Positions 1-20,799 are shown, counted from the first letter of the stretch. The stretch: DNA of 64,000 nucleotides from Candidatus Campbellbacteria bacterium (GCA_016699465.1 CP064977.1:745116-809115), one strand, 5' to 3'. The notes: a model not told the origin generated them from the sequence alone. Program-made: numbers and translations.

Positions 1-1
1 A

Positions 2-313
2 GATGACATTCCACACACACTTCCTACAGGAAAGCGCGGTGCAATTAAATTTGAAGTTCGTAATGATGGAACAAAAGAAACATCAGATTGGAAATTTGAA
101 GTTGCACTTCCAACATCTCCTGACTATACCTACACATCAGCAACACAACAGTCACTCTTCCCGGGAGATCGTATTGAATACGTTATCGGATTTGATCGTG
201 TGCGAAATGCTGATACGGACTCATTCCGTATAGAAGTAGACCCAAAGGGTTCGGTGAATGAGTCAAACGAATCAAACAACATCAAGACGGGAACCATCAT
301 TATTACCAAATAG
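2..313 (+). CDS. 3' fragment of a secreted/surface protein with a CARDB-like beta-sandwich C-terminal domain. Truncated by the window edge.
   Basis: Frame 2 is open from the window start to TAG at 311-313 (...GAIKFEVRNDGTKETSDWKFEVALPTSPDYTYTSATQQSLFPGDRIEYVIGFDRV...TGTIIITK*). It reads more protein-like than the tabulated 3..233 ORF. Confidence 0.4.
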   Translation, partial: DDIPHTLPTGKRGAIKFEVRNDGTKETSDWKFEVALPTSPDYTYTSATQQSLFPGDRIEYVIGFDRVRNADTDSFRIEVDPKGSVNESNESNNIKTGTIIITK

Positions 314-410
314 AGTATTGCCGTGTTCATGGGTTGATGCCGTTCTTCCTGAGTGGGGGAACGGTATTGACTTTATACACAAAATGTGCTAATATTCGAA
401 CCACATACCG

Positions 411-1109
411 ATGCATATGGAACATACAGCTCCACACAAAAATATCAAAACACACACACAACCACAGAGTCCTGCGGGTGCCTTTTTGGCACTTCTTACG
501 GAACACCCTGTGTTGGTGAGTATTTTGTGGGGTGGATTTTTCATTGTCCTTCTCGGTCTTTCGTTTGCTCTTGGATTGGTACCAAAACTCGATACGGAAA
601 CTCCTACTGTTGCAGTTGCAAGCACAACGGTGTTTCAACAGGTATCAGCGTCACAGGAAGATAGTTCACCGGTGCGTATTGTGATTGAACGTGTTGGTGT
701 GGATGTGATGATTAGTAATCCAGAAACACGTGACATTGAAACTCTCGATGCCGCACTTTTGAATGGAGCGGTCCACTATCCAGGTTCTGGTAATTTGGAA
801 GATACAAGTAACATGTTTATTTTTGGTCATAGTACCGGATTTCGTGTGGTGCAAAATGAAGCGTTCAAGGCGTTCAGTGGTTTGAAAAATATACACAACG
901 ATGACCTTATTCGCGTGCAATCAAAGACTAAAGAGTACGTCTATCGTGTTACGAAGACCTCACTTGTCGATGCGGACAATGTGCTTGTTGATCTTTCGAG
1001 TACGCATAAAAAATTAACGCTCTCAACATGTAACGCCTTTGGTCAGAAACAAGAGCGATATGTAGTTGAAGCGGATTTCGTTGGCAGTTATACTCTCACA
1101 CCACAGTAG
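411..1109 (+). CDS. Sortase family transpeptidase (class undetermined)
   Basis: N-terminal TM anchor (ILWGGFFIVLLGLSFALGLV). Catalytic His context FIFGHSTG. Active-site TLSTC (TLxTC) motif near the C-terminus. ATG at 411. Confidence 0.75.
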   Translation: MHMEHTAPHKNIKTHTQPQSPAGAFLALLTEHPVLVSILWGGFFIVLLGLSFALGLVPKLDTETPTVAVASTTVFQQVSASQEDSSPVRIVIERVGVDVMISNPETRDIETLDAALLNGAVHYPGSGNLEDTSNMFIFGHSTGFRVVQNEAFKAFSGLKNIHNDDLIRVQSKTKEYVYRVTKTSLVDADNVLVDLSSTHKKLTLSTCNAFGQKQERYVVEADFVGSYTLTPQ

Positions 1110-1118
1110 TGGGAGATA

Positions 1119-1147
1119 TTGACTTTTAATTTTTTGGGATGTATAAT
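1119..1147 (+). promoter_or_regulatory. Sigma70-type promoter: TTGACT, 17-nt spacer, TATAAT
   Basis: Perfect -35 TTGACT (1119-1124) and -10 TATAAT (1142-1147) with a 17-nt spacer, 30 nt upstream of the ATG at 1177. Confidence 0.55.
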
Positions 1148-1176
1148 ACAAAAACCTATATAATAATCAAATACAT

Positions 1177-3873
1177 ATGTTTACAACAATTACACGGACA
1201 ATTCGGTACAACATGCTTGCCACAGGAGTTTCTCTACTTCTTGTCGGCGCCGTTATTGTGCCTGGCGCAATGCTTGCCCAGCAAGTAACAGGTGTCGATG
1301 AGACAGTGAATGCACGTGCGTCTGAAAAGGTGATTGAACCAGCTCCCACTGAGCCAGCTCCAACTCCAACTCCAGATCCGGTGGAACCAACTCCCATTGA
1401 TCCTCCGGTTTCAGTAGAGCCAGTTTCAAATCCGAATCCTTCTCCAGTACTTGTTGAAGAAACATGTGCTCCAAATCCAACAGGTGATCTTCGTGGTCGT
1501 GATGGCACGCCATTTAATCCATTTATTGAAACACAAGTTGTGTACAACGGTACGTCTGCTTCAGTGTGGGTAAAAAACTTTTCTGCAACATGTAGTTATA
1601 AAATAAATCTTGCGGCATACGAAGTATTTTTTGCATATCCAGATCCGGACTTCATTAGTTCACAGCGATTATATAATGCGCACAGTGTCACACTTGCCCC
1701 ACAGGGTCAGGTACAACTTACTGTGAGTTTGCCTTCATGTGCATATCAAGTAGACCTTTTTGAGGGTTCATTTGTTCCTCAAACAAATCCAAATTTTGAT
1801 GGTATTACGTATCCAACGCTCAGTATTCTTGATTGGATTATGGATTTTGAAAATGTTCCTTTGTGTGGACCTGTAGATACTCGTCCTACACTTACTATTG
1901 TAAAAACGGTTATTAACGATAACGGTGGAACAAAGCAGGTTGCCGACTTCAAGCTCTATGCGGGTACCATTCCATTTGTGAGTGGTGTACCACAACATGT
2001 ACAACCTGGAGTACAGACCGTGCACGAAGATCAACTTCCTGGATACACTGCCGGTGTATGGGGTGGTGATTGTTCTGCAAATGGTACGGTTACACTTGCC
2101 GCAGGTGACCATAAGACATGTACTATTACCAATAACGACAATCCTGTTGTTATTCCAAATCCAGCATTTTTGAAAGTAGTTAAAACAGTTATCAATGACA
2201 ACGGTGGAACAAAACTTCCCACAGACTTTCCGTTGTACGTTAACAAACAGCTCGTACAACACAATGTTGTTACACAATTCCAAGCAGGAACATACACCGT
2301 GTCTGAACATAACTTGCCTGGATATACAGCTGGTGTGTGGGGCGGAGATTGTTCTGCAAAGGGTGAAGTAACACTTGTTGCTGGTCAGTCAAAGACCTGT
2401 ACGATTACCAACGATGATAACCCAGTTATTGTTGGACAAGAGGCGTACCTTACTGTTGTAAAAACAGTTATCAACAACAATGGTGGAACAAAGCAGGTTT
2501 CCGATTTTAAACTTTTTGTATCACGCGTGGGAAGTGAAGCTCCAACCGTGTCGGTTATCAGTGGTCAAAAAAACCAATTTGCTCCGGCACTTTACTCAGT
2601 GTCTGAAGAAAATCTTTCTGGATACACAGCCGGCGCATGGGGTGGTGATTGTTCTGTAAAGGGTGAAGTAACACTTGTTGCTGGTCAGTCAAAGACCTGT
2701 ACAATTACCAACGATGACAACGCCGGTACCACTGGTGATGACGACGATGATGGAGGTGGTGGAGGGGGTGGAGGTGGTGGTCACCGACATCCGAATGTGG
2801 TGCTCTTCAGCACGCCTGAGATCCTTGGTTCATCAATTTCTTTGATGCAGGTTCCTTATACAGGTCTTGGAACAAGCCTTTTCCAAATCTTCCTTTTTAT
2901 TCTTGGATTGCTCGCAATTTCTGGTGGGGTGACGTACGTGATTGCACGCCGACGTATGGGTGAAGATACTATGGAAACAACATCATTTGTACGTACTCAG
3001 TATGTACCAAAAGAAACTGCACCAATTATTGAAGATATCGCTCCTGAATTAGATGCGCTATCTGCCTACGATGAATACACATCTCGGACGGAGATCACTC
3101 CTGCGTATGCACAGTACGAATCTACAGTAGACGCGGGTATCGACCCCGATGTTCCTGTAGATCTTCCTATTGCTCCTGCAACTCCTGTTGCTGATGTTGT
3201 GGCCCAATCAACCGCAGTGCGAATGATTACACAACGAGATCAAAGTATTTCTCAAAAAGCATTGGTGTTGGTTCGATTACAAGATATGGCGCGTGCATCT
3301 CGGACACTGGTGTCTGATGACGGTATGCAACTTATTGCAAACTCAGCAGAAGGTGATGAAAAGAAGGCAACAGAGCGCTTGAATCACATTATTGAAATTG
3401 CAAAGGCACGATATCCACGAGAAGACGGATGGCTCGTGTTGGATAAAGGACGTGTTCGTGAATCACTCTTTGTTTCGACACTCTCAATGGTTCCATTGTT
3501 TGTTGAATGGATGGTGCGAGGTGAAGACAAAAATATCTTTGGATTTCTTCGTATGCTCAAATCACAGGAACAACCTGTCGCTGACTTTGTACGAAAGGTG
3601 GTTGCTGAACTCGATAACGCGCACCGCGCACGCCTTGAGGGCGCTGAAGAAAAAACAGCCGTACATCCACACATTGCTGAGGTGACCTACCATCTTTCAA
3701 ACAATGATTTAGAGACAATTATCGGAGAACTCTTACAGGGTGTTGATGAGCGATATGATTCTGCGTACACATCAGTACGTCTTGCTCTTGTACGTGTACT
3801 TGATGTTATTAAAGAGCGACAGGTTACCCGTATTGGTGGTGCATACTCTTTTGCGCAAAACCAAGAGGTATAA
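1177..3873 (+). CDS. Large surface protein: signal peptide, Pro-rich linker, three tandem ~95-aa beta-sandwich-like repeats, Gly10 linker, VPYTG-hydrophobic-RRR segment, then a ~310-aa C-terminal (cytoplasmic?) domain
   Basis: 898-aa ORF. N-terminal hydrophobic signal. PTEPAPTPTPDP linker. Repeats VKTVINDNGGTK...PGYTAGVWGGDC...KTCTITNDDN occur three times. GGGGGGGGGG is followed by VPYTGLG + LFQIFLFILGLLAISGGVTYVIA + RRR. Confidence 0.7.
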   Translation: MFTTITRTIRYNMLATGVSLLLVGAVIVPGAMLAQQVTGVDETVNARASEKVIEPAPTEPAPTPTPDPVEPTPIDPPVSVEPVSNPNPSPVLVEETCAPNPTGDLRGRDGTPFNPFIETQVVYNGTSASVWVKNFSATCSYKINLAAYEVFFAYPDPDFISSQRLYNAHSVTLAPQGQVQLTVSLPSCAYQVDLFEGSFVPQTNPNFDGITYPTLSILDWIMDFENVPLCGPVDTRPTLTIVKTVINDNGGTKQVADFKLYAGTIPFVSGVPQHVQPGVQTVHEDQLPGYTAGVWGGDCSANGTVTLAAGDHKTCTITNNDNPVVIPNPAFLKVVKTVINDNGGTKLPTDFPLYVNKQLVQHNVVTQFQAGTYTVSEHNLPGYTAGVWGGDCSAKGEVTLVAGQSKTCTITNDDNPVIVGQEAYLTVVKTVINNNGGTKQVSDFKLFVSRVGSEAPTVSVISGQKNQFAPALYSVSEENLSGYTAGAWGGDCSVKGEVTLVAGQSKTCTITNDDNAGTTGDDDDDGGGGGGGGGGHRHPNVVLFSTPEILGSSISLMQVPYTGLGTSLFQIFLFILGLLAISGGVTYVIARRRMGEDTMETTSFVRTQYVPKETAPIIEDIAPELDALSAYDEYTSRTEITPAYAQYESTVDAGIDPDVPVDLPIAPATPVADVVAQSTAVRMITQRDQSISQKALVLVRLQDMARASRTLVSDDGMQLIANSAEGDEKKATERLNHIIEIAKARYPREDGWLVLDKGRVRESLFVSTLSMVPLFVEWMVRGEDKNIFGFLRMLKSQEQPVADFVRKVVAELDNAHRARLEGAEEKTAVHPHIAEVTYHLSNNDLETIIGELLQGVDERYDSAYTSVRLALVRVLDVIKERQVTRIGGAYSFAQNQEV
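1888..2721. repeat. Three tandem in-frame coding repeats (~290-300 bp each) within the surface protein gene
   Basis: The second and third copies share ~80 nt of near-identity (tggggyggwgattgttctg..aagggtgaagtaacacttgttgctggtcagtcaaagacctgtac.attaccaacgatga.aac). Confidence 0.7.
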
Positions 3874-4118
3874 AACCTTATCGGGAGATAAGGGCGGCGC
3901 AAAATCCACAGATATGTGGATTTTGCTTTTACAGGGTGTTTGTGCTATAGTTATGGGTACAAATTTGGTACTACTCATGAGCAGCAATGTTTAGTGTAGT
4001 TTCCAGTTTTATTGGCGACTATAGAGCGAGCGAAATAAAAATGCATTCATTTTCATTTCCGAGCCCAGGAGCCAATACGGGGTTTAATACCCTTTATTAA
4101 TCGTAATTTTCTTTCGAC

Positions 4119-4352
4119 ATGACTTCAACACAAAAAGGAGGAGCAGGTGTTACAATCCTCATCATTGTTGTTCTTCTCATTCTCGCAGGCGTTCTCTTCT
4201 TCTCAAACAAGAAAGATGCATCTGACGTAGTTGTAGACGATACAACAGTAGGAACAACAACAGACACAACTGTTGGTGCAACTACAAGTAACGCAACAGC
4301 AGCAACTGGTACAACAGTTGTCGCAACAACTTCTACTACAACAACAAACTAA
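4119..4352 (+). CDS. Small membrane-anchored Thr-rich protein
   Basis: 77 aa. N-terminal TM (GAGVTILIIVVLLILAGVLFF). C-terminal T/V/A-rich low-complexity tail. SD-like aaaggagg lies inside the 5' end, so the start is uncertain. Confidence 0.4.
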   Translation: MTSTQKGGAGVTILIIVVLLILAGVLFFSNKKDASDVVVDDTTVGTTTDTTVGATTSNATAATGTTVVATTSTTTTN

Positions 4353-4372
4353 TCGTTCGTTGTTTGGATAAA

Positions 4373-4405
4373 ACACCACTCGCATGCGGGTGGTGTTTTA
4401 TTTTT
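4373..4405 (+). terminator. Rho-independent terminator
   Basis: ACACCACTCGC/GCGGGTGGTGT hairpin followed by TTTTATTTTT, immediately after the 4119..4352 CDS. Confidence 0.6.
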
Positions 4406-4528
4406 GTTAATTATGGAGCGTAATGATACGTACAGTATACAAAAGTTTTCAACACGTATTGTTTTTTAATACGGGGGGTGTGTTACTATTAGTACATTAC
4501 TATTTGTGAATGTTCGCGTGGTGGCGAA

Positions 4529-5353
4529 ATGCATTCACAGAGTGTTGGGTTTGTTATGCGTATTTCAAAAAAAAATGTTCCCGAAAAAAGAGTTTCTAAC
4601 AAGAGTGTTTTGACGCGTCCCCATGTTGATTCATTAATACGACAAAAAAGTCGTGATGTTTCACACACATTTTCTACTGCACCGCAAAAGAAAGAGGTAA
4701 TAAAAAATATTTCAAAAAGGGAATTGGGTGTCGATGATTCAAAGAGAATGTTCTTAAAGGCTGCAGGAATTGCAGGTCTTGGAGTTGCCGCAACGGCACT
4801 ATTTCCACGTCAGGCGGATGCGTATGTCGCAGGAAGCACACCAACGTCGAATGTTGTGGGTGTTAAAAATGTTGCCAATACACGGGTAAATCCAGCAACT
4901 GAAGATACACTTGCAACTCGAGCATCTGAGGCAACTCTTGCGCTGATTAAAACAAATTCTGACAAGTTTAATTTTGATGGACAGAATTTGAAAGTGACTA
5001 GTGCAGGTGCTATTTCGGGTACGGTGGGTGTACAAGACACATCAAACACTCAAGTAAATCCTGCCACAGAAGATAGTCTCATCCTTCTTCGTAGGATTCT
5101 GAAACAGGTTGATTCACTGGGCGTTGTAGACTCTGCACAGCGACAGAAAGTTACCCTCGATTCAATCACAGGTTCACTTACCTTGGGAACAGTATCGACA
5201 GTTACCACCGTTTCTACTGTTACAACTTGTTCAACAGTAACATCGGCGACCAACCTCGTTGCTCTCGGTGGTGTTGATGGTCGGTACTTGCACATTGATA
5301 CTGCACGTAATGCATCTGCAAATGGTATTCGGGCTAACTTAACATTTTCATAA
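4529..5353 (+). CDS. Hypothetical protein with an internal Tat-like (KR-variant) signal, SKRMFLKAAGIAGLGVAATALFPRQADA. The true start is possibly TTG at 4724.
   Basis: ORF from ATG 4529. The S-K-R-M-F-L-K + h-region + AxA segment begins ~65 aa in. An in-frame TTG at 4724 would place it at the N-terminus. Internal repeat NT[RQ]VNPATED[TS]L occurs twice. tatC/tatA lie downstream. Confidence 0.5.
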   Translation: MHSQSVGFVMRISKKNVPEKRVSNKSVLTRPHVDSLIRQKSRDVSHTFSTAPQKKEVIKNISKRELGVDDSKRMFLKAAGIAGLGVAATALFPRQADAYVAGSTPTSNVVGVKNVANTRVNPATEDTLATRASEATLALIKTNSDKFNFDGQNLKVTSAGAISGTVGVQDTSNTQVNPATEDSLILLRRILKQVDSLGVVDSAQRQKVTLDSITGSLTLGTVSTVTTVSTVTTCSTVTSATNLVALGGVDGRYLHIDTARNASANGIRANLTFS

Positions 5354-5357
5354 GGAT

Positions 5358-8207
5358 ATGGCAGTTACTAATAATCTTAAAACACAAGTTGATTTGCCTG
5401 TTTGGGAGTGGTGTCGTTTTGCCCCCACTAATACTGTGGCATTATCAGGCATGGCAACTGCGGACGACGGTTCGAGTCGTTTTATATACTATTTGACTAC
5501 ATCGACCTTTTATAGGTATGACACCTTTGCAGATACATGGCAACAACTCGCAACACCAAACACGGCGCCCGTAACGACACTTTCACTACGGTACACAGGT
5601 TTACGTGGGTATCACGGTCGAGTACTTAGTGCTACTGGAACTACAATTCAAATACCAGGTTTGCGCGGTCCGACACTTAATGGGGCGACGCTAAAAATAC
5701 TCACCGGTACTGGGGTTGGTCAACAGAGAGTGCTTACCTATACTGGTGAGACTATTCATGATGCGGGTGTTATCACTGGAACAACCACTTCAACACTTGC
5801 CGATTCAACAAAGAAATGGAAATTTAATCAGTGGTCAGGATACATAGTTGGTATTACTTTTGGTACAGACGTGACACAGTATAAAAAGATTTTGTACAAC
5901 GATGCTACAACTCTTTATATTGCTGATCCAAACCTTCAGCCACATGATCCTTGGAATAACCAAATTTTTGTGGCGGCAGCACCGTACGCATTACCTGTTA
6001 CGACGGCTGGGTCGCAGGCACATTTTCAAATTCTTTCTCATACATACTCCGTTCCTGCGTGGGATGTAACTCCAGACTATACATCATATTTCACCACGAC
6101 AACGGGGGGGATTTATTTACTTTCATCTGCTGCCGCAGCCCCATTTTTCACACTCCAGTACTATGATATTGCACATGATACATGGCAGACAAAGACGTGT
6201 AATCAAGGTCTGATTCAAGCAGCTCTTGGTACAGATTGTTCAGTTGAGCGATTGGCAAAGACAGGTTCAGCATTTTTGTCTTCAACAGCAACGGCAGGCG
6301 CCGCAAGAACGCTAACTGACGGCGTGCAAACACTAACTGTTGATAGGTATGCAAATTACCGTATTCTTATTACTGGTGGCACAGGAGTGGGACAACATAG
6401 GCGTATTGTGTGTAATACTGCGACAGTATTTACTGTACATAAGCCATGGGACACAACTCCAGATGCAACATCAACTTACGAGATTTGGGGTGACTATGAC
6501 AAAATGTTTTTAGCTGGAGGTGCGGCTGCTGCTCTGTACGCTTATTCACCTGAAAACGATTACTGGATGCAAGGTAACAACTTTGATGATGGTGTTGTCC
6601 GCAACATATCAGTCAAGATGAATGGGTGGGAAGGGCTAGGTGTTTCAACAGGTGTGCGCATTGCTGCCGGTGTTACTGCTGTGAATCCTGTCCCAACAGC
6701 TGGAGGTACGGGGTATGTCGTTGGGGATATTCTCACGTGTTCAGTGGGAGGTACTGGTGCAAGGGTGATAGTAACATCCACAACTTTTTCAGGTTCTACA
6801 GGTGTGGTGACTGGTATTGAATTGGTAGCTGCTGGAACTGCCACTGGTTTTACCACAGGCACTGGAAAGGCAACATCAGGTGGTACAGGTTCGGGGTGCA
6901 CAATTGAAATAACATCCGTAGGAGCAACGTGTTTAGTGACGACGGCCAGTGCGCACTGGTTTAAGACTGGTGATTCGGTGACATTTGCTGGTTGTTCAGA
7001 GGCCGCGTATAACGCTGCGCATACTATTATTGGAGTTGGCTCAACCACAGCATTTGATGTTGCAGTGACGGCTACAGCAAACATGGCGGCAAGTAACTCT
7101 CAGTCGACAACTGTTATTGTTGACGCATCGAAAAATTGGACAGCTGGTGAGCACGTAGGTAAGTTGGTTCATTTATCTGTCGCCGGCACCGCGCCAACAG
7201 CACAAATCAGGTGGATTACCGCCAACACAGCAACAACACTTACTGTGGCAACAATTGTTGCTGGTACGAACGGAACATCAAAATATGCAATCTATGACTC
7301 AAAAGTCTTTGGGACAGACAACCAGTTTAAACCAGCCAATCAACAAAACTGGGGTCATGCATCATCTGGTTCTCTCACCACACTTGTAGACTCTTCAAAA
7401 AGTTGGGTAACTAACTGTTGGGCAGGCTATAAGCTTCGTATAGAGTCGGGAACAGGTTTTGCTACAGGTATCATTTCAATAGTTTCTAATACGGCAACTA
7501 CGCTTACGTATGCCGCACAAGCTTTTACACCAGATGCAACAACACACTACGAGATAGCGGATACATGGGGTTTGATCACTGCAGGAGGTACCACCACTCC
7601 AGTTACGGAAACAACAACAAAGAACTGGACTACAAACATGTGGGCAGGTAAGAGGTTACGTATTACAGGAGGAACAGCACTAGGGCAGGAGGGTACTGTG
7701 ACTTCAAACACTGCTACTGCTCTTACTACCGCAGCTCTGACACTTACTGATACTACGTCCACATATGCAATACTAGGAGTTCCTGCGCGTGGAGCCGGTA
7801 TGCAATTGTTGTGGGTGTGGAACAATACCGATACAGCGACAAAGGGCAAGTATATGTTTTTACCACGAGGAGGAGGTTCGAACACTGCGGATATTTATGA
7901 CATTACAACAACCCGTTGGATATATGGATATTTTTTCTCACCACAACAAGAAACACTTACCACAGGTTCAATGTATGCGTATGATGGACATAATACAATT
8001 TATTTTACAAAAGACGCGACCGGAAAAGTGTTTGCCTTTAACTTCACAACGAATTCAATAACAATGGTAGGACAAATTCCATATGGACACTCAACAGCCA
8101 TTATTGGAAACAGATTAGAAATAATTGAAACGGCAGACGGATTAAATTATTTGTACATGATGCGGCACACTGGTGCGGAAATGTGGCGAATGCTCCTCTT
8201 CTTTTAA
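5358..8207 (+). CDS. Large (949 aa) Thr/Gly-rich repeat protein of unknown function
   Basis: aagga RBS 2-6 nt upstream of the ATG at 5358. Recurrent module [KR]L.I..GTG.GQ....(V/I)..NTAT.LT occurs at least 5 times. No signal peptide. Confidence 0.6.
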   Translation: MAVTNNLKTQVDLPVWEWCRFAPTNTVALSGMATADDGSSRFIYYLTTSTFYRYDTFADTWQQLATPNTAPVTTLSLRYTGLRGYHGRVLSATGTTIQIPGLRGPTLNGATLKILTGTGVGQQRVLTYTGETIHDAGVITGTTTSTLADSTKKWKFNQWSGYIVGITFGTDVTQYKKILYNDATTLYIADPNLQPHDPWNNQIFVAAAPYALPVTTAGSQAHFQILSHTYSVPAWDVTPDYTSYFTTTTGGIYLLSSAAAAPFFTLQYYDIAHDTWQTKTCNQGLIQAALGTDCSVERLAKTGSAFLSSTATAGAARTLTDGVQTLTVDRYANYRILITGGTGVGQHRRIVCNTATVFTVHKPWDTTPDATSTYEIWGDYDKMFLAGGAAAALYAYSPENDYWMQGNNFDDGVVRNISVKMNGWEGLGVSTGVRIAAGVTAVNPVPTAGGTGYVVGDILTCSVGGTGARVIVTSTTFSGSTGVVTGIELVAAGTATGFTTGTGKATSGGTGSGCTIEITSVGATCLVTTASAHWFKTGDSVTFAGCSEAAYNAAHTIIGVGSTTAFDVAVTATANMAASNSQSTTVIVDASKNWTAGEHVGKLVHLSVAGTAPTAQIRWITANTATTLTVATIVAGTNGTSKYAIYDSKVFGTDNQFKPANQQNWGHASSGSLTTLVDSSKSWVTNCWAGYKLRIESGTGFATGIISIVSNTATTLTYAAQAFTPDATTHYEIADTWGLITAGGTTTPVTETTTKNWTTNMWAGKRLRITGGTALGQEGTVTSNTATALTTAALTLTDTTSTYAILGVPARGAGMQLLWVWNNTDTATKGKYMFLPRGGGSNTADIYDITTTRWIYGYFFSPQQETLTTGSMYAYDGHNTIYFTKDATGKVFAFNFTTNSITMVGQIPYGHSTAIIGNRLEIIETADGLNYLYMMRHTGAEMWRMLLFF

Positions 8208-8210
8208 AGT

Positions 8211-9212
8211 ATGAACATAGACTACCTTATACAATTACTTACCAACCGTCAGAATGGACTTCTTCTCGCAAAAGATCAGGCATTTCAGTCTGGTGATTTG
8301 GAAAGAATTAACAGTGTTGATGCGGAAATTTTAGATGTGCAAAATACACTCTCAAAATTAAAGCTCTTGGCAAGTATTGAACAAGCCGCTGCTGCCACAG
8401 CATTTTCTGAAGCAGAAGTAGTGAAGAGTGGTATTGAAGCTGCCTTTAATCCGACTGTCGTTAGTGATGCAACACGCGTATTGCTTGAGTATGATATTGC
8501 ACCCTATGCAACTGATCCTGAACATGAGATGAAAATTCAGAGTATTTTGGAAAAAATGGGACCAATGAGTTCTCCCGACCAGATAGATTTGTATATACAA
8601 AGTGCTGTACCTGGGAGTCCTGTTACGGGAGCCATGGTTTTTGCGGCAGCGGCTCGATATGCTGTCGACGCTCGATTAATGTTGGCTCTTATGGAGAATG
8701 ATTCCATGTATGGGACACTTGGTGTTGGTGCACGCACATTTAATCCTGGAAATGTAGGAAATACAGGCACTAAAGAGCGCATGTATCCATCTTGGGAAGA
8801 AGGAGTCGGTGCGGTTGCATTATGGTTGAGTAGGCACCGAAGAGAGTCGGAGGTTCCTGTTGTATTACCGGGGGTTTTGGATGAAACGTTATCTGAAGAG
8901 GCACAAGGTGAAGAGGCAACAACGACAGATTCAACAGTTGAATCTGATGCGACGACAACACCACCGTTTGTAGAAACAGCAACGGGCACAACAACGCAAG
9001 ATGTAGAGGCAACTTCAACTCCAGCAGATACCGGAACAGTATATGGTACGAGCACACAAGCAACATCGACTCCGCCGGGGACTGTAGAGGCAAGTACGAC
9101 ACCTGAGGTGCTATCGCCTAGTGTTTTGGAAGGAACCACTACAGCAACGAGCACGCCATCTGAACAAACTGCTCGTGTTATACGGCAAAAACAGAAGCGC
9201 AAAATGGCATAA
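8211..9212 (+). CDS. Hypothetical protein with a Thr/Ser-rich C-terminus
   Basis: 333-aa ORF 3 nt after the previous stop. Conserved-looking core ...GARTFNPGNVGNTG...SWEEGVGAVALWL. C-terminal low-complexity T/S/E-rich region. Confidence 0.5.
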   Translation: MNIDYLIQLLTNRQNGLLLAKDQAFQSGDLERINSVDAEILDVQNTLSKLKLLASIEQAAAATAFSEAEVVKSGIEAAFNPTVVSDATRVLLEYDIAPYATDPEHEMKIQSILEKMGPMSSPDQIDLYIQSAVPGSPVTGAMVFAAAARYAVDARLMLALMENDSMYGTLGVGARTFNPGNVGNTGTKERMYPSWEEGVGAVALWLSRHRRESEVPVVLPGVLDETLSEEAQGEEATTTDSTVESDATTTPPFVETATGTTTQDVEATSTPADTGTVYGTSTQATSTPPGTVEASTTPEVLSPSVLEGTTTATSTPSEQTARVIRQKQKRKMA

Positions 9213-9231
9213 AGTTTTTTCTAGTATGTAA

Positions 9232-9972
9232 TTGATTTCTGTGAATTCCTTTGAAGAAACTCTTTCGCAATATGGCACGTATTTTGAGGAATTACGCCAA
9301 GCAATTCTTACGGTAACGAAGGTTTTTGTTGGTGTATTTGCTCTTGGTTTTTTTGCAACATCTCCTGCAGTACGTTTTATATTGGAACATGTTCGTATAA
9401 GCGGTGTAACCGTTGTGACTACGTCGCCATTTCAACTCGTTGAACTTGCTATGAGTGTGGGTTTTTTTTGTGCGTGTGTCGTCGTCGTACCACTTTTTGT
9501 TTTTCGTGTGTATTCATTTCTTAAGCCAGGTTTATTTCCTGCAGAACGTACTTTTTTTGCATGGTCGGCTCCTTTCGGTCTCGGGCTTTTTATCACAGGT
9601 TTTACGTACGGGTGCGTCATGTTGTATTACGCAATAAAAATAATTGCTCAAGTGAATATAGGGCTTGGTGTTTCAAATTATTGGGATATTAGTTCGTTTA
9701 TTTCACAAATGGTACTCACCTCGGCACTTCTCGGTCTCCTTTTTCTTTTTCCGTTAGTTATTACCTTTCTTGTTCGTTTGGGTATTGTAGATGCAGCTTT
9801 TCTAAAATCAAAAAGGAAGCACGCTATCGCTGGGATATTCATTCTCGTCTCTTTGCTTCCGCCGACGGATGGGGTATCATTAATCTTGATGGCAGTGCCG
9901 ATGATAATAATTTTTGAACTCACTGTTGTGTTCAATAAGGGGAAGAATCGCGGTCGTCTTTTAACAGTGTAA
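9232..9972 (+). CDS. tatC: Sec-independent protein translocase TatC
   Basis: Six predicted TM segments. TatC signature FLKPGLFPAER. Overall TatC-like hydropathy. Apparent non-ATG (TTG) start at 9232; an in-frame GTG at 9241 is an alternative. Confidence 0.8.
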   Translation: MISVNSFEETLSQYGTYFEELRQAILTVTKVFVGVFALGFFATSPAVRFILEHVRISGVTVVTTSPFQLVELAMSVGFFCACVVVVPLFVFRVYSFLKPGLFPAERTFFAWSAPFGLGLFITGFTYGCVMLYYAIKIIAQVNIGLGVSNYWDISSFISQMVLTSALLGLLFLFPLVITFLVRLGIVDAAFLKSKRKHAIAGIFILVSLLPPTDGVSLILMAVPMIIIFELTVVFNKGKNRGRLLTV

Positions 9973-9985
9973 CTAGAAATTGTAT

Positions 9986-10138
9986 ATGTTTGGATTAGGA
10001 ACAAAGGAAATTATAATTATTGCCGTTGTGTTGGTACTGCTTTTTGGATCGAAGAAAATTCCAGAGCTTACCCAGAGCATTGCGGATGCAATCCGACATC
10101 TTCTCGGTGCATTTAAAGATGAAGATACAAAAAAATAG
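9986..10138 (+). CDS. tatA: Twin-arginine translocase TatA/E family protein (copy 1)
   Basis: 50-aa MFGLGTKEIIIIAVVLVLLFGSKKIPEL...: N-terminal TM plus amphipathic helix. Canonical TatA F-G hinge. Confidence 0.8.
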   Translation: MFGLGTKEIIIIAVVLVLLFGSKKIPELTQSIADAIRHLLGAFKDEDTKK

Positions 10139-10173
10139 GGACTCGGTTTTTCTTTAGTAGGTAATGTATACAT

Positions 10174-10338
10174 ATGTTTGGATTAGGAACAAAAGAAATC
10201 ATAATTATTGCGGTGGTACTTGTTTTACTTTTTGGTGCGAAGAAAATACCCGAACTCGCAAAGAATATTGTTGATGCATTCAAAAATTTAACAGGAGCAT
10301 TCAAGGATGTGGATGATGGTGGTGAAAAGAAAAAATAG
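10174..10338 (+). CDS. tatA: Twin-arginine translocase TatA/E family protein (copy 2)
   Basis: 54-aa MFGLGTKEIIIIAVVLVLLFGAKKIPEL... Paralog of copy 1, diverged mostly at third codon positions. Confidence 0.8.
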   Translation: MFGLGTKEIIIIAVVLVLLFGAKKIPELAKNIVDAFKNLTGAFKDVDDGGEKKK

Positions 10339-10422
10339 TACGCCTTTTATTTTGTTTGGTTGATTTTGTATGCGTGTTGTATATAAACGCTATTATTTTT
10401 TTACAACACATACACACAGACG

Positions 10423-13400
10423 ATGAATCATTTTAAAAATACAAAATATCTTATTTTTAAAATAGTAGTTCTTTCCCTGTCTATATGTGCGTATACTGGT
10501 GCTGCATATGCATCAGAAATGTACACGTCAGGTGATACTGTTGTTGTTGGAGAATTTATTTACAACGATGACTATACTCCAACAACTGACGATTGTACGG
10601 TTACTATTTACCCACCAACGGGAAGTGTTACTCCGTTGGTAGAGGCAACAACAACAGATAATTCTACGGGGTGGCATTATTACGAATTCACTGCTCCGGC
10701 AACAGAGGGGAAATACCCTGCTTTTATAACATGCGGAACGCTTGCAGGGGGTGATTTACTAAAGGTTGATAAGACGTTTGTTGTTTCTAATACTGTAGTT
10801 ACGGCGTCATCTTCTCTTGGTGCAGCAATCGGTGCAAGTACTGCAAGTACAGCTAATTCTATTGCCACCGCATCCACCTCACTCGCTGCAGCAATTAGCG
10901 CAGGCACCGCAAGTACCGCCGATACTATTGCCACTGCATCCTCATCACTTGGTGCAGTTATTAATGCAAACACAAATACCCAGACAGCGGGTGTTATTTC
11001 TTCTGTAAATGCAAACACCGATATTCAAATAGCTACAGCATCTTCGTCAATCGTTTCGCAAGTTCTTTCGTCTCTGGCTCTTATTCCGGCAAATGTGTGG
11101 TCGTATTCAACGAGAACATTGTCTTCAATGGGCACACTTGTTGCTGATGTGTGGAGTTATGGTACGCGACGACTTACGGACGCTGTTCTTGATAGTGGGA
11201 CTCTTGCTTTGTTATCTGATATGGAAACCGCCTCCTCATCACTCGGCAGTGCCGTGGCTGCAGGAACCGCAGGTGTGAACGCACACACAGACAGTCAACT
11301 TGCCTCAACAATCACCACCATCAACGCACACACGGATGCAACTGTCCTCACCGCAACCACCTCACTCCTTGCCACACTCCCAACCGCAGTCTGGTCAAGT
11401 GCAACACGATCACTCACCACCTTCGGAACACTCGCAGCTGATGTGTGGACGAACGGTACACGCACCCTCACGTCAGGAGTCCTCACCGCAGGTGACGTCT
11501 GGTCATACGCAACACGTCGTCTCTCTGATGGCACACTCGATGCCGGAGCACTCGCTACCGTCTCTGATGTGGGTACCGCATCCACCTCACTCGCCGCAGC
11601 AATTAGCGCAGGCACTGCAAGTACCGCCGGCACCATCTCGACCGCTTCCTCATCACTCGGCAGTGCCGTGGCTGCAGGAACCGCAGGTGTGAACGCACAC
11701 ACAGACAGTCAACTTGCCTCAACAATCACCACCATCAACGCACACACGGATGCAACTGTCCTCACCGCAACCACCTCACTCCTTGCCACACTCCCAACCG
11801 CAGTCTGGTCAAGTGCAACACGATCACTCACCACCTTCGGAACACTCGCAGCTGATGTGTGGACGAACGGTACACGCACCCTCACGTCAGGAGTCCTCAC
11901 CGCAGGTGACGTCTGGTCATACGCAACACGTCGTCTCTCTGATGGCACACTCGATGCCGGAGCACTCGCTACCGTCTCTGATGTGGGTACCGCATCCACC
12001 TCACTCGCCGCAGCAATTAGCGCAGGCACTGCAAGTACCGCCGGCACCATCTCGACCGCTTCCTCATCACTCGGCAGTGCCGTGGCTGCAGGAACCGCAG
12101 GTGTGAACGCACACACAGACAGTCAACTTGCCTCAACAATCACCACCATCAACGCACACACGGATGCAACTGTCCTCACCGCAACCACCTCACTCCTTGC
12201 CACACTCCCAACCGCAGTCTGGTCAAGTGCAACACGATCACTCACCACCTTCGGAACACTCGCAGCTGATGTGTGGACGAACGGTACACGCACCCTCACG
12301 TCAGGAGTCCTCACCGCAGGTGACGTCTGGTCATACGCAACACGTCGTCTCTCTGATGGCACACTCGATGCCGGAGCACTCGCTACCGTCTCTGATGTGG
12401 GTACCGCATCCACCTCACTCGCCGCAGCAATTAGCGCAGGCACTGCAAGTACCGCCGGCACCATCTCGACCGCTTCCTCATCACTCGGCAGTGCCGTGGC
12501 TGCAGGAACCGCAGGTGTGAACGCACACACAGACAGTCAACTTGCCTCAACAATCACCACCATCAACGCACACACGGATGCAACTGTCCTCACCGCAACC
12601 ACCTCACTCCTTGCCACACTCCCAACAGCAGTCTGGTCAAGTGCAACACGATCACTCACCACCTTCGGAACACTCGCAGCTGATGTGTGGACGAACGGTA
12701 CACGCACCCTCACGTCAGGAGTCCTCACCGCAGGTGACGTCTGGTCATACGCAACACGTCGTCTCTCTGATGGCACACTCGATGCCGGAGCACTCGCTAC
12801 CGTCTCTGATGTGGGTACCGCATCCACCTCACTCGCCGCAGCAATTAGCGCAGGCACTGCAAGTACCGCCGGCACCATCTCGACCGCTTCCTCATCACTC
12901 GGCAGTGCCGTGGCTGCAGGAACCGCAGGTGTGAACGCACACACAGACAGTCAACTTGCCTCAACAATCACCACCATCAACGCACACACGGATGCAACTG
13001 TCCTCACCGCAACCACCTCACTCCTTGCCACACTCCCAACCGCAGTCTGGTCAAGTGCAACACGATCACTCACCACCTTCGGAACACTCGCAGCTGATGT
13101 GTGGACGAACGGTACACGCACCCTCACGTCAGGAGTCCTCACCGCAGGTGACGTCTGGTCATACGCAACACGTCGTCTCTCTGATGGCACACTCGATGCC
13201 GGAGCACTCGCTACCGTCTCTGATGTGGGTACCGCATCCACCTCACTCGCCGCAGCAATTAGCGCAGGCACTGCAAGTACCGCCGGCACCATCTCGACCG
13301 CTTCCTCATCACTCGGCAGTGCCGTGGCTGCAGGAACCGCAGGTGTGAACGCACACACAGACAGTCAACTTGCCTCAACAATCACCACCATCAACGCACA

Positions 13401-14457
13401 CACGGATGCAACTGTCCTCACCGCAACCACCTCACTCCTTGCCACACTCCCAACCGCAGTCTGGTCAAGTGCAACACGATCACTCACCACCTTCGGAACA
13501 CTCGCAGCTGATGTGTGGAATGCAGCAACACGAACTCTTACATCACTCACACTCTCGTCTCAGTCTCCGTGGACTGTGACAACATCGGATTTCGGGTCGG
13601 TTGTTGCTGGAGAAAATTACCTTGCTACGGTCACAACTATCTACAACGGAACACTTACAGACTCACAGAATGTACCAACGGTTACTATTTATGATCCAAG
13701 TAGAAATGTGGTTGTTAACAGCGCTGTGATGACTCGAGTAAGTGTTGGAACATATACGTATGTATACACCACTGCAGGAAATGCTGCAGCTGGAACATGG
13801 GAAAGTGTATTTTCAGCGACTGTAGAGACAGGAAAGACTTTACCAGGTAATGACTATTGGACAGTGGTGACGACACCTGCTCAGGTGGTGATAAATAGTA
13901 TGTCAGATGTAAGTACGCCGCTTGTTGGTGCAAATGTCACCATTACAAACGAAGGTTTGAGTGGAAATGAATACCAGTACGAGTGGTGTGTGGTTTCTTC
14001 TGTGGGTAATCCTTGTGGTGGTGGTGATGATATCTTTCACGCAACAGCTGCAAAATACATTAATGCAGGAGAAGATTTTAATACGACACTAACTGCAACT
14101 GTTCCGGCGGCAGGTAATTACTATTTCAAAGTGATTGTATACTTTGGTACTGAAAGTTCTGGTGCGTCACGTTCGTTTACCGCGACTTCCTCGGGCAACA
14201 CTGGTGGAGGAGGTGGCGGAGGAGGTGGAGGTGGGGGCGGAAGTGATACCACAACGTCGGTAACTCCTCTAGGTTCTTGTAAGCGTAGAGCGGACTTTAA
14301 CTGTGATACGAAGGTCAATTCGATAGATTTTTCGATACTCCTATATTTCTGGAAATCGATGTATCCATTTAAAAACCAAAATGTTGATATAAATAAAGAT
14401 ACAAGGGTAGATTCAGTTGATTTTTCAATTTTATTATACGAATGGGATAAAAAATAA
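10423..14457 (+). CDS. Giant secreted repeat protein with a C-terminal type-I-like dockerin (two DxNxDxxVNxxD segments)
   Basis: 1344 aa. Signal peptide (IVVLSLSICAYTGAAYA). N- and C-terminal Ig-like flanks (TVTIYPPTG / TVTIYDPS). A central array of 138-aa repeats with VW..TR.L sub-motifs. Gly13 linker. C-terminal DFNCDTKVNSIDFSILLYFW ... DINKDTRVDSVDFSILLYEW. Confidence 0.75.
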   Translation: MNHFKNTKYLIFKIVVLSLSICAYTGAAYASEMYTSGDTVVVGEFIYNDDYTPTTDDCTVTIYPPTGSVTPLVEATTTDNSTGWHYYEFTAPATEGKYPAFITCGTLAGGDLLKVDKTFVVSNTVVTASSSLGAAIGASTASTANSIATASTSLAAAISAGTASTADTIATASSSLGAVINANTNTQTAGVISSVNANTDIQIATASSSIVSQVLSSLALIPANVWSYSTRTLSSMGTLVADVWSYGTRRLTDAVLDSGTLALLSDMETASSSLGSAVAAGTAGVNAHTDSQLASTITTINAHTDATVLTATTSLLATLPTAVWSSATRSLTTFGTLAADVWTNGTRTLTSGVLTAGDVWSYATRRLSDGTLDAGALATVSDVGTASTSLAAAISAGTASTAGTISTASSSLGSAVAAGTAGVNAHTDSQLASTITTINAHTDATVLTATTSLLATLPTAVWSSATRSLTTFGTLAADVWTNGTRTLTSGVLTAGDVWSYATRRLSDGTLDAGALATVSDVGTASTSLAAAISAGTASTAGTISTASSSLGSAVAAGTAGVNAHTDSQLASTITTINAHTDATVLTATTSLLATLPTAVWSSATRSLTTFGTLAADVWTNGTRTLTSGVLTAGDVWSYATRRLSDGTLDAGALATVSDVGTASTSLAAAISAGTASTAGTISTASSSLGSAVAAGTAGVNAHTDSQLASTITTINAHTDATVLTATTSLLATLPTAVWSSATRSLTTFGTLAADVWTNGTRTLTSGVLTAGDVWSYATRRLSDGTLDAGALATVSDVGTASTSLAAAISAGTASTAGTISTASSSLGSAVAAGTAGVNAHTDSQLASTITTINAHTDATVLTATTSLLATLPTAVWSSATRSLTTFGTLAADVWTNGTRTLTSGVLTAGDVWSYATRRLSDGTLDAGALATVSDVGTASTSLAAAISAGTASTAGTISTASSSLGSAVAAGTAGVNAHTDSQLASTITTINAHTDATVLTATTSLLATLPTAVWSSATRSLTTFGTLAADVWNAATRTLTSLTLSSQSPWTVTTSDFGSVVAGENYLATVTTIYNGTLTDSQNVPTVTIYDPSRNVVVNSAVMTRVSVGTYTYVYTTAGNAAAGTWESVFSATVETGKTLPGNDYWTVVTTPAQVVINSMSDVSTPLVGANVTITNEGLSGNEYQYEWCVVSSVGNPCGGGDDIFHATAAKYINAGEDFNTTLTATVPAAGNYYFKVIVYFGTESSGASRSFTATSSGNTGGGGGGGGGGGGGSDTTTSVTPLGSCKRRADFNCDTKVNSIDFSILLYFWKSMYPFKNQNVDINKDTRVDSVDFSILLYEWDKK
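11230..13520. repeat. Tandem 414-bp coding repeat: 5 full copies plus a ~220-bp partial, with a divergent copy upstream at ~10800-11230
   Basis: Antisense and sense artefact ORFs recur with an exact 414-nt period. The copies are virtually identical; one C/A difference is visible near 12618. Confidence 0.85.
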
Positions 14458-14472
14458 TTACGTCACAAGAAT

Positions 14473-15381
14473 ATGAATATGAAAAAAAATATAATGTTTT
14501 GCTTTGTGCTCGCCGCACTTTTTCTCGTTATTCCAACAGGTGTCTCAGCGGCAACGGTATATGTTGAGGCATCTCAGGATACGGTTTCTGTTGGTGACAC
14601 GATTATCATTACTGTAAAAATCAATGCGGACGGCGGTGTTCTCAATACCGTTGATGGAATGATCTCACTACAACCTGCTACAGGAGTACTTGCGATACGT
14701 GAGTTTAGTCTTGCACAATCATCGTTTGGTTTGTGGCCAAGGACACCATCTCTTTCAAAAGATGCGCAGCACATCTCTTTTGTGGGGGGTGTACCGGGAG
14801 GATTCAGTATCGAAGGAGCAACGGTCTTTAAGATTATTGCAGAGGCTACAAAAGAAGGTGTGGTTACGGTTATTCCAGAAAATATCCAAACATTTGCCAG
14901 TGATGGAAAGGGGACTCTCGTTCCTTCATCTGTACGTGGTTTGACACTTGAAGTGGTACCAAAAAAGGATACAGGTGTATCTGATGAGTGGGGGACGCTT
15001 CTTTCTCGGGATACTACACCACCTGAAGATTTCATTGTTGTATTGGGACAGGACCAATCTCTTTTTGAAGGGAAAAAATTTGCTTTTTTTAGTGCCCTAG
15101 ATAATCAAACAGGTATTGATCACTATGAAGTGTCAGAAAACGGGGCACCGGCAGTACGAAGTGGAAGCACATACGTATTACAAAGTCAAAATGATGATGT
15201 ACGACTTTCTGTTGTTGCATATGACAAATCTGGAAATACAAAGACAGCGCTCTATCCAATAGAAACAAGAAATGGTTTTCCATGGATTTCTGTTGTTATT
15301 GGTATCATCGTGTTGTTTATTCTTCGAGAAATATACACCATGTGGAGACGCGCTAGAAAAAATGTTTCAAACGTTGTTTAG
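14473..15381 (+). CDS. Membrane-anchored cohesin-like domain protein (small scaffoldin/anchor)
   Basis: Signal peptide. ~140-aa region ATVYVEASQDTVSVGDTIIITVKINADGGVLNTVDGMISLQPATGVLAIREFSL...ATVFKIIAEATKEGVV fits the cohesin beta-sandwich sequence pattern. C-terminal TM (ISVVIGIIVLFIL) plus RRARK tail. Confidence 0.65.
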   Translation: MNMKKNIMFCFVLAALFLVIPTGVSAATVYVEASQDTVSVGDTIIITVKINADGGVLNTVDGMISLQPATGVLAIREFSLAQSSFGLWPRTPSLSKDAQHISFVGGVPGGFSIEGATVFKIIAEATKEGVVTVIPENIQTFASDGKGTLVPSSVRGLTLEVVPKKDTGVSDEWGTLLSRDTTPPEDFIVVLGQDQSLFEGKKFAFFSALDNQTGIDHYEVSENGAPAVRSGSTYVLQSQNDDVRLSVVAYDKSGNTKTALYPIETRNGFPWISVVIGIIVLFILREIYTMWRRARKNVSNVV

Positions 15382-17086: not shown

Positions 17087-17132
17087 TCTCTCAGTGGTGT
17101 TTTGTTTTTGTCTGTGATAACCTGCCTATACT

Positions 17133-17369
17133 ATGAGTATTTCAGGATTGTTGTTACAAAAACTTGCACGTAAACAGCTCGAAGGGTTGCCTCCTGAACA
17201 GCGAGATGTGTTTATGCGTATGCTCGAAAAAAATCCACAACTTTTTGTGACTATTGCACAAGAAGTCCAAGTTAAAATGACAAGCGGTATGGAGCAAATG
17301 GCGGCCGCCCAAACAGTTTTTGCATCACACGAAACTGAGTTGCGGGCTCTAATGCAGGATTCAAAATAA
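17133..17369 (+). CDS. Small hypothetical protein
   Basis: 78-aa ORF, helical, no recognisable motif. Confidence 0.35.
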   Translation: MSISGLLLQKLARKQLEGLPPEQRDVFMRMLEKNPQLFVTIAQEVQVKMTSGMEQMAAAQTVFASHETELRALMQDSK

Positions 17370-17450
17370 CGGCCTCACTTCTTACATAAGGGCCGCGAAA
17401 GGGTTTCTTCAGAGATTGCCATATAACCACCACCTTTTGCACAGTGTGGG

Positions 17451-17479
17451 TTGTTTGAGAGTGAATAAATTCGTATAAT
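17451..17479 (+). promoter_or_regulatory. Candidate sigma70 promoter (TTGTTT, 17 nt, TATAAT), possibly giving a leaderless transcript starting at ATG 17487
   Basis: -35 at 17451-56 and a perfect -10 at 17474-79. The -10 overlaps the tabulated ATG at 17478. A second in-frame ATG lies at 17487, ~8 nt after the -10. Confidence 0.35.
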
Positions 17480-19905: not shown

Positions 19906-19910
19906 AAAAT

Positions 19911-20750: not shown

Positions 20751-20799
20751 TGCTGCCAAAATAAAAATTGGATATTGGAAAGGGTAAAATATAAGTTTT

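Follow-up and report, generated by a model that had tools for sequence, protein, structure and literature searches.

A conserved sortase gene and a neighboring surface protein gene with an internal sorting-signal-like segment and a cytoplasmic domain in Patescibacteria

We analyzed a 64,000-nucleotide stretch of the genome of a Candidatus Campbellbacteria bacterium (GCA_016699465.1, CP064977.1:745116-809115; hereafter the window), in which a sortase gene (411-1109) is followed on the same strand by a gene encoding an 898-amino-acid (aa) surface protein (1177-3873), hereafter the target. The target contains a PxTG-type motif, a transmembrane (TM) helix, and a basic cluster in the order of a sortase sorting signal, and this signal is internal, being followed by a previously undescribed cytoplasmic domain. 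The combination is conserved in dozens of related species, and the arrangement has not been described for known sortase substrates. The two genes probably form a dedicated sortase/substrate pair that is widespread in Patescibacteria, mainly in genomes of the Paceibacteria/Parcubacteria type, and in which the substrate is cleaved at PYT|G. A functional link between the sortase and the target is very likely.

Sorting-signal layout within the target protein

The target gene is one uninterrupted open reading frame (ORF) on the plus strand, as are all features of the two genes given below. Downstream of the ectodomain, an Asp5-Gly10 spacer (2734-2781, with Gly10 at 2752-2781) leads into a juxtamembrane segment found to be conserved by alignment, HRHPNVVLFSTPEILGSSISLMQVPYTG (2782-2865), which ends in L-M-Q-V-P-Y-T-G (2842-2865). 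The VPYTG motif (aa 559-563, 2851-2865), with a predicted scissile bond at T562|G563, was followed by a predicted TM helix of 24 residues (aa 567-590, 2875-2946), recognized by hydropathy and as an AlphaFold helix (residues 33-59 of model 1), and by RRR (aa 591-593, 2947-2955), a basic stop-transfer cluster on the cytoplasmic side. Candidate recognition peptides around VPYTG are SISLMQVPYTGLGTS and SSISLMQVPYTGLGTS. Across the six frames of the window, a sortase-type motif with a TM segment inside a long ORF was found in the target only.

Sorting signals are arranged in this way, with a PxTG pentapeptide directly ahead of a hydrophobic segment and then a basic cluster. A preliminary description of the window had already reported this layout, from the signal peptide to VPYTG, the TM segment, and RRR (2851-2955), and our coordinates agreed with it. 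It had also pointed out that a long domain takes the place of a stop codon after the basic tail, and 305 residues were indeed counted between RRR and the target stop codon. The internal stop or frameshift that it had considered in this gene was absent.

Conservation of the motif and the tail in relatives

One genome of each GTDB species was scanned with an alignment of the tail, which yielded 19 loci, all from metagenome-assembled genomes of Patescibacteria and labelled Campbellbacteria, Wolfebacteria, Taylorbacteria, Parcubacteria/Paceibacterota, 'Saccharibacteria', or Patescibacteria group. The closest relatives, L004 and L003, showed 78-87% tail identity. An exhaustive hidden Markov model (HMM) search of 1.84 billion representative proteins with profile A2 added dozens of 50%-identity clusters, mostly of 700-1500 aa and with the tail domain at the very C-terminus. 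Because three seed sequences carried a He_PIG repeat, the 6545 matches of this profile included many unrelated He_PIG repeat proteins, and the family members were re-selected with an HMM of the tail only. Two loci were obtained by a metagenome scan with the distant-subfamily alignment A4. A word-indexed search with a 62-aa juxtamembrane profile gave nothing useful and missed known members as well, and the generality of the motif was judged from the exhaustive HMM search and the genome loci.

LSQ[V/I]PYTG with an adjoining TM helix was present in the 18 genome loci that span the region, down to 23% tail identity. When the genome loci were pooled with the representative proteins and duplicates were removed, 82 distinct sequences from Patescibacteria were obtained, and their consensus beside the TM helix was L-[SAT]-Q-[VIL]-P-Y-T-G. 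Leu at position -4 and Val, Ile, or Leu at position -1 occurred in 82/82, Ser, Ala, or Thr at position -3 in 71/82, and Gln at position -2 in 74/82 sequences. The X residue of PxTG was Tyr in 80 of the 82; the two exceptions, VPETG and IPITG, retained P-x-T-G. The preliminary description had proposed the conservation of VPYTG in orthologues as a check, and PxTG was kept in all 82 relatives spanning the region, although the invariance of P, T, and G is not independent evidence because the search pattern required these residues. Judged by sequence, variation at X only is as expected for a PxTG sortase motif. Every family member spanning the juxtamembrane region had P-x-T-G beside the TM segment, PxTG being the sole short motif invariant in the target, and the six family sequences without the motif were C-terminal fragments or gene calls beginning past the TM helix.

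The rest of the layout was also maintained in the family. The hydrophobic window began 0-10 residues past the motif Gly, and the ten residues after the TM helix contained on average 3.1 Lys/Arg versus 0.5 Asp/Glu. In all 82 sequences, 188-393 residues (median, 330) followed the motif Gly. Homologues terminating right after the basic tail, which the preliminary description had thought possible, were not found among the 82, the shortest tail being 188 residues. The signal was thus not at the extreme C-terminus in the window protein or in any family member.

The tail was found in every member and therefore does not stem from an artefactual fusion. The idea that a canonical substrate and a separate cytoplasmic protein were read as one through a missed stop codon, a frameshift, or mis-assembly could draw on the gene calls P0001, P0044, P0068, and P0069, whose starts fall within the tail or at the juxtamembrane segment, and on L002, in which the gene is split in two. 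However, contig ends or internal Met starts explain the short gene calls, the window ORF is continuous, and 82 independent sequences from many samples carry the motif, the TM helix, and the tail in one frame. Colinear full-length relatives rule out a gene-fusion or frameshift artefact for practical purposes, and we regard it as extremely improbable.

Linkage of the sortase and target genes

A sortase orthologue lay upstream of the target on the same strand in 23 of the 24 sequences with any visible upstream DNA (the window and related loci). By tblastn with the window sortase, such an orthologue was found in all genome loci having upstream DNA, in the NCBI/ENA contigs of P0002 and P0005, and in L024, a metagenome contig of the distant subfamily. 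It was also found in L026, L027, L028, L030, and L031, contigs that were picked for divergence and include the VPETG variant. The synteny held down to approximately 25-30% tail-domain identity. In L032, the sortase gene was located 2.4 kb upstream of the target gene with three short ORFs between them.

Other possible substrates were sought in the same DNA. Apart from the target, no PxT[GAS] motif with a TM segment was found in the window and the related loci. Likewise, none of the 718 ORFs of at least 120 aa in the 447 kb of the window and loci had a canonical C-terminal sorting signal, defined as a hydrophobic end and a basic tail after a sortase-type motif. The LPxTG-type proteins encoded outside the window that the preliminary description had envisaged as alternative substrates were therefore not encountered in these 447 kb. 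A second sortase was looked for in the window and not detected, and both a second sortase and canonical substrates in the window were discarded as candidates. In the window and the related loci, the sortase was consistently adjacent to a single target gene, as in a dedicated system.

The preliminary description had left two readings side by side: processing by the sortase at (V)PYTG, and a type-I membrane protein whose TM region mimics a sorting signal by chance. Chance mimicry was rejected because the motif is conserved in 82/82 relatives and the sortase is adjacent in 23/24 sequences. Sortase processing is favored by the motif, the synteny, and the absence of another signal in the 447 kb, from which we infer cleavage.

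A third gene recurs in the cluster. The order gyrB, CARDB gene (opposite strand), sortase, and target was recurrent, and L031 keeps the part from the CARDB gene to the target. The CARDB gene flanks the sortase gene in L001 (6553-7644), L024 (3225-4538), L026, L027, L028, and L031; it encodes a surface protein with an N-terminal membrane anchor and is usually divergent from the sortase gene and preceded by gyrB. In the window, the 3′ end of a CARDB-like surface protein gene was recognized at 1-312 by a by-eye alignment to the C-terminus of the L001 CARDB protein. This end lies on the same strand as the sortase gene, indicating that it is locally inverted. No sorting signal was found in the CARDB protein.

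The sortase

The preliminary description had named a sortase with a TLSTC active site at 411-1109, and this was confirmed: the 232-aa product matched Pfam PF04203 (E value 2e-20; score, 73.3 bits with a cut-off of 26.6; profile positions 1-123 of 125). The product carries a TM anchor at its N-terminus (aa 34-57, 510-581), and sequence motifs assign its catalytic residues as His140 in FIFGH140ST (828-830), Cys207 in LTLSTC207 (1029-1031), and Arg216 in ER216YVV (1056-1058). The motifs containing His and Cys, F-x-F-G-H-S and L-T-L-x-T-C, were kept in 19 sortase orthologues.

The window sortase scored far below the curated cut-off of every NCBIfam sortase class model, with 44.6, 42.7, 37.7, 35.7, 28.2, and 14.2 bits for class D, SrtD, class E, GN, class C, and SrtB against cut-offs of 165, 140, 160, 158, 160, and 154, respectively. 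With the generic sortase model TIGR01076, it reached 37.4 bits against a cut-off of 39.35. The closest solved structures were class D/A sortases, with E values of 1e-5 or weaker.

The cytoplasmic domain

The RRR cluster is followed by a variable cytoplasmic linker (aa 594-684, 2956-3228), which is predicted to be disordered (predicted local distance difference test [pLDDT] <50) and is poorly conserved in alignment A2, and then by a conserved helical domain (aa 685-887, 3229-3837) delimited with AlphaFold and Foldseek. An AlphaFold model built with six sequences comprised the TM helix, the disordered linker, and the helical domain at a pLDDT of approximately 80, and a model of aa 679-898 built with 38 sequences reached a pLDDT of 92.4 and a predicted template modeling score (pTM) of 0.84. 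The domain matched no Pfam or NCBIfam family above threshold.

When the two models were compared with the PDB by Foldseek, the top 50 matches were all clamp-loader subunits, without any other fold among them, and included E. coli gamma/tau, delta, and delta', B. subtilis delta, and yeast, human, and archaeal RFC. The best match had an E value of 1.6e-5 over approximately 190 columns, with a template modeling score (TM-score) of approximately 0.45 and a root-mean-square deviation (rmsd) of approximately 11 Å. We read the large rmsd of the models as two sub-domains set at a different angle. In a search of PDB sequences with the family profile, the best matches were the lid regions of RFC5/RFC4, and these were weak (E value 0.06-0.5); the profile alignment paired LISEDGLKLIxxAAEGDExKALxxL in the tail with DISEDGMKALVTLSSGDMRRALNIL in the RFC lid (the 'GD-x-[KR]' helix). 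A few family members gave sub-threshold matches to DNAX_ATPase_lid and AAA_assoc_2. No AAA match was obtained for the target in Pfam or NCBIfam, and neither an AAA+ ATPase core nor Walker motifs were found. In the models, the tail resembles the lid of AAA+ proteins joined to a collar of the clamp-loader type, with the ATPase core missing; the resemblance is at the level of fold and does not amount to demonstrated homology. The collar holds the subunits together in clamp loaders, which suggests oligomerization or docking as the role of the tail domain; by this analogy, it probably oligomerizes or docks a cytoplasmic partner.

The ectodomain and the promoter of the target

The target begins with a predicted signal peptide (aa 1-34, 1177-1278), read from the sequence as a basic n-region, a hydrophobic core, and AMLA|QQ. 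A Pro-rich linker (aa 54-90) precedes a conserved N-terminal ectodomain with four Cys residues (aa 97-232, 1465-1872), which was delimited by tblastn in the related loci. This domain had no family match in Pfam or NCBIfam, and a word-indexed protein search with it returned no matches. By tblastn, it began the target gene in 12 distinct related loci (L001, L002, L004-L007, L009-L011, L013, L015, and L017), and the two matches each in L004, L011, L013, and L015 may represent duplicated copies. The domain is succeeded by three tandem SpaA_2 repeats of the prealbumin-like, pilin/adhesin type (1888-2724; PF19403, E value 1.4e-33; aa 238-323, 331-416, and 424-516), and a weak Cna_B signal was also detected in the ectodomain.

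The target architecture was colinear in relatives of 700-1500 aa. Their stalks contained He_PIG, CLIPPER, or PKD repeats in place of SpaA_2, and the Gly-rich spacer, the juxtamembrane segment, the TM helix, and the tail domain were the constant parts; most of the relatives that were inspected had a Gly run upstream of the motif. Such a pattern is that of a surface fiber whose tip and base are constant and whose stalk can be exchanged, and the domains of the ectodomain are typical of sortase-anchored adhesins and pilins.

The promoter that the preliminary description had placed before the target gene was also recovered. This sigma-70-like TTGACT-17-TATAAT sequence (1119-1147) agreed with the consensus at 11 of 12 positions and was the top-scoring promoter-like site within 1-4600. 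When 23 sequences with a sortase gene were scanned (the window and 22 related loci), 17 had a promoter-like site with at least 10 of 12 consensus positions at the stop codon of the sortase gene or shortly past it, and the site matched at 12/12 positions in L026 and L028. By these sequence matches, the target gene seems to have a strong promoter of its own that is kept in position, which would fit a substrate made in excess over the sortase.

Several of these features would also suit a sortase that cleaves PYT|G and then ligates or polymerizes, joining the ectodomain to a lysine or the N-terminus of another copy of itself or of the CARDB neighbor in a fiber or heteromeric complex, in the manner of class C enzymes. 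SpaA_2 and Cna_B-type domains are pilin folds, the CARDB surface protein gene is conserved as the third gene in the cluster, and the target has its own strong promoter. Nevertheless, the class C model gave 28 bits against a cut-off of 160, each cluster has one motif-bearing gene, the CARDB protein lacks a sorting signal, and no invariant lysine was seen when the N-terminal domains of the window, L001, L002, and L024 were inspected by eye. We consider such a ligase rather doubtful. A class C pilus system proper was rejected on the grounds of the class C score, the single target gene per cluster, and the missing invariant Lys.

Proposed processing of the target

In the reading that we prefer, a dedicated sortase/substrate pair, the signal peptide would direct export of the 898-aa precursor, which the TM helix and RRR would retain in the membrane with approximately 560 residues outside, namely the conserved tip domain, the stalk of pilin-like immunoglobulin (Ig)-type repeats, and the Asp/Gly spacer. 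The membrane-anchored sortase encoded upstream would recognize the juxtamembrane L-x-Q-[V/I]-P-Y-T-G, and Cys207 would cleave between Thr562 and Gly563. VPYTG is the probable site of cleavage, as far as its sequence indicates. The mature ectodomain of approximately 525 residues would be transferred to the peptidoglycan/cell wall or another amine acceptor, and the leaving group would be a single-pass membrane stub of approximately 335 residues (Gly563-898) bearing the clamp-loader lid/collar-like cytoplasmic module. This module might organize the precursor before cleavage or report that cleavage is done.

Several observations weigh against this reading. Sorting signals are defined as C-terminal, and that of the target is internal; moreover, the curated sorting-signal HMMs (the NCBIfam LPXTG anchor and its variants) did not match aa 555-593, and NCBIfam gave one anchor match only, to LPxTATN within the signal peptide, which was spurious and below threshold (14.5 bits; cut-off, 32). 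Conservation also covers about 25 residues ahead of the motif (P-x-V-x-L-F ... [AS]-[FS]-[VI]-x-L-x-Q), which is unusual for sortase signals, and this segment could have a structural role of its own. On the other hand, the extra conservation suggests that recognition involves a larger surface, as would suit a system of one enzyme and one substrate. Because the sortase fits no established class, its specificity is not readable from homology. The sequence without an upstream sortase gene, L029, shows 215 nt of upstream DNA containing the end of a non-sortase ORF. Canonical substrates could lie elsewhere in the genomes, which were covered in part, and the clamp-loader likeness of the tail is remote (TM-score approximately 0.45, rmsd approximately 11 Å, sequence E value at best 0.06).

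Some of these observations would be accommodated by an uncleaved type-I membrane adhesin or receptor, in which LSQVPYTG has a structural or partner-binding role and the sortase acts elsewhere or binds without turnover. The ectodomain would then stay joined through the TM helix to the cytoplasmic domain, allowing outside-in coupling. A large conserved cytoplasmic domain suits a bitopic receptor and not a sorting signal, and the conservation extending well upstream of the pentapeptide, the lack of matches to LPXTG-anchor HMMs, and the partial genomes in which other substrates were sought are in line with it. However, this reading leaves unexplained why the sortase is adjacent in 23/24 sequences across deep divergence, why variation is confined to the X of PxTG, and why other candidate substrates are lacking in 447 kb. 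We consider an uncleaved receptor unlikely.

The pair described here would be a candidate attachment organelle, with a constant tip, a variable Ig stalk, a dedicated sortase, and a CARDB partner, for Patescibacteria, which live attached to other microbes and whose surface biology is almost unknown. The LSQ[V/I]PYTG peptide is testable in vitro without culturing the organism.

More speculatively, maturation might yield two active products, a host-binding adhesin fixed covalently to the wall of an episymbiotic ultrasmall bacterium and the lid/collar module freed or unmasked, the latter assembling into a ring or docking onto an AAA+ machine. The replication clamp loader is proposed as a possible dock because the cluster adjoins gyrB in six loci examined. 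Such a two-product scheme is quite improbable; if true, it would couple surface assembly and host attachment to an intracellular process, constituting a new kind of trans-envelope signaling, and a functional cytoplasmic domain would be seen for the first time in a sortase substrate.

Downstream genes and other features of the window

The DNA downstream of the target differed in content among the loci. In L001 (11431-13150) and L026 (8905-10231), YchF lies within approximately 1 kb past the target, and in the window and L003, approximately 17 kb of extra genes separate the target from YchF (window, 4119-21747, with YchF at 21804-22898). The extra 17 kb includes a 949-aa protein without a family match, a glucosaminidase-like protein, TatC, and large repeat proteins. 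Two orthologous target genes are broken in their assemblies: that of L001 at 9770-9900, by a string of N within He_PIG repeats that are almost identical, and that of L002 at 3588-3756, by a stop codon or frameshift in a contig of 3.8x coverage. Because these assemblies are broken, the gene calls P0002 and P0005 are truncated, hiding the signal peptide and the N-terminal domain.

An ORF of 1344 aa (10423-14457) contains an array (11227-13519) of 5.5 copies of a 414-nt (138-aa) unit with 99% identity and has a C-terminal dockerin-type match. Long repeats so close to identity suggest that the array expanded recently or that the region is sensitive to assembly. Another ORF (17478-18752) joins a MORC/GHKL-type ATPase (HATPase_c_3 and Morc6_S5) to a PEP-utilizers mobile domain, an unusual combination; the PPDK N-terminal ATP-binding domain is encoded by a separate ORF 2 kb downstream (20800-21747). 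A prophage-like stretch in this Patescibacteria genome was noted at 24535-47152, with matches to AAA_24, phage replication protein O, N6/N4 and C5 DNA methylases, and portal plus Mu F. It also includes matches to the major capsid, head-tail connector, tail tube, and tail collar/Gp10_C proteins and a PG_binding_1 protein.

Comparison with known systems

A full-text literature search retrieved no sortase substrate with a cytoplasmic domain and no PYTG motif in such a context, and sortase systems in Patescibacteria appeared only in passing mentions. The target and its sortase share with the canonical LPXTG/SrtA-type system the signal peptide, PxTG, the hydrophobic helix, the Lys/Arg cluster, the adhesin/pilin Ig folds, and a His-Cys-Arg sortase. 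By definition, the sorting signal of that system stands at the C-terminus and has a short charged tail, whereas the target signal is internal and 188-393 residues follow it in every member. The recognition region of the target is also longer, at approximately 8-25 residues (L-x-Q-[VIL]-P-Y-T-G plus P-x-V-x-L-F), and the window sortase belongs to no NCBIfam class, with one enzyme apparently serving one substrate. A large, deeply conserved family thus breaks the C-terminal rule, its signal being always followed by a folded cytoplasmic domain.

A dedicated sortase system is known from proteobacteria, in which the class GN 'marine' sortase (TIGR03784) is paired with an adjacent target (TIGR03788). 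As in that system, the sortase gene here is genetically tied to a single neighboring target gene in many genomes. The phylum and the envelope are different, however, and the window sortase scored 35.7 against 158 with the GN model. In addition, the window target has no VWA or TIGR03788 match and its signal is not C-terminal, and no two-component or OmpA partner genes are present here, the neighbor being the CARDB gene.

With class C pili, the pair shares SpaA_2/Cna_B-like domains and a sortase in the same cluster, and Val or Ile at motif position 1 is known for pilin signals. It differs from them in having one substrate gene instead of two or three, in lacking a recognizable pilin-motif lysine, and in falling short of the class C HMM. 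To our knowledge, no known pilin has a cytoplasmic domain.

The predicted fold of the tail domain bears a remote resemblance to the lid (domain II) and collar (domain III) of clamp-loader subunits (DnaX gamma/tau, HolA delta, HolB delta', and RFC). Unlike these subunits, it has no domain I or Walker motifs, is connected to the TM helix through a linker predicted to be disordered, and shows a different inter-domain angle.

In streptococci, the cleaved sorting-signal peptide 'C-pep', of approximately 30 residues, is sensed by separate proteins forming an intramembrane two-component system. The proposed fate of the target is similar in concept, in that a membrane-retained sortase product would carry information into the cell. 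The remnant here would differ in itself bearing a folded cytoplasmic domain of 200 aa, and should cleavage take place, the sortase would have a functional protein as its leaving group.

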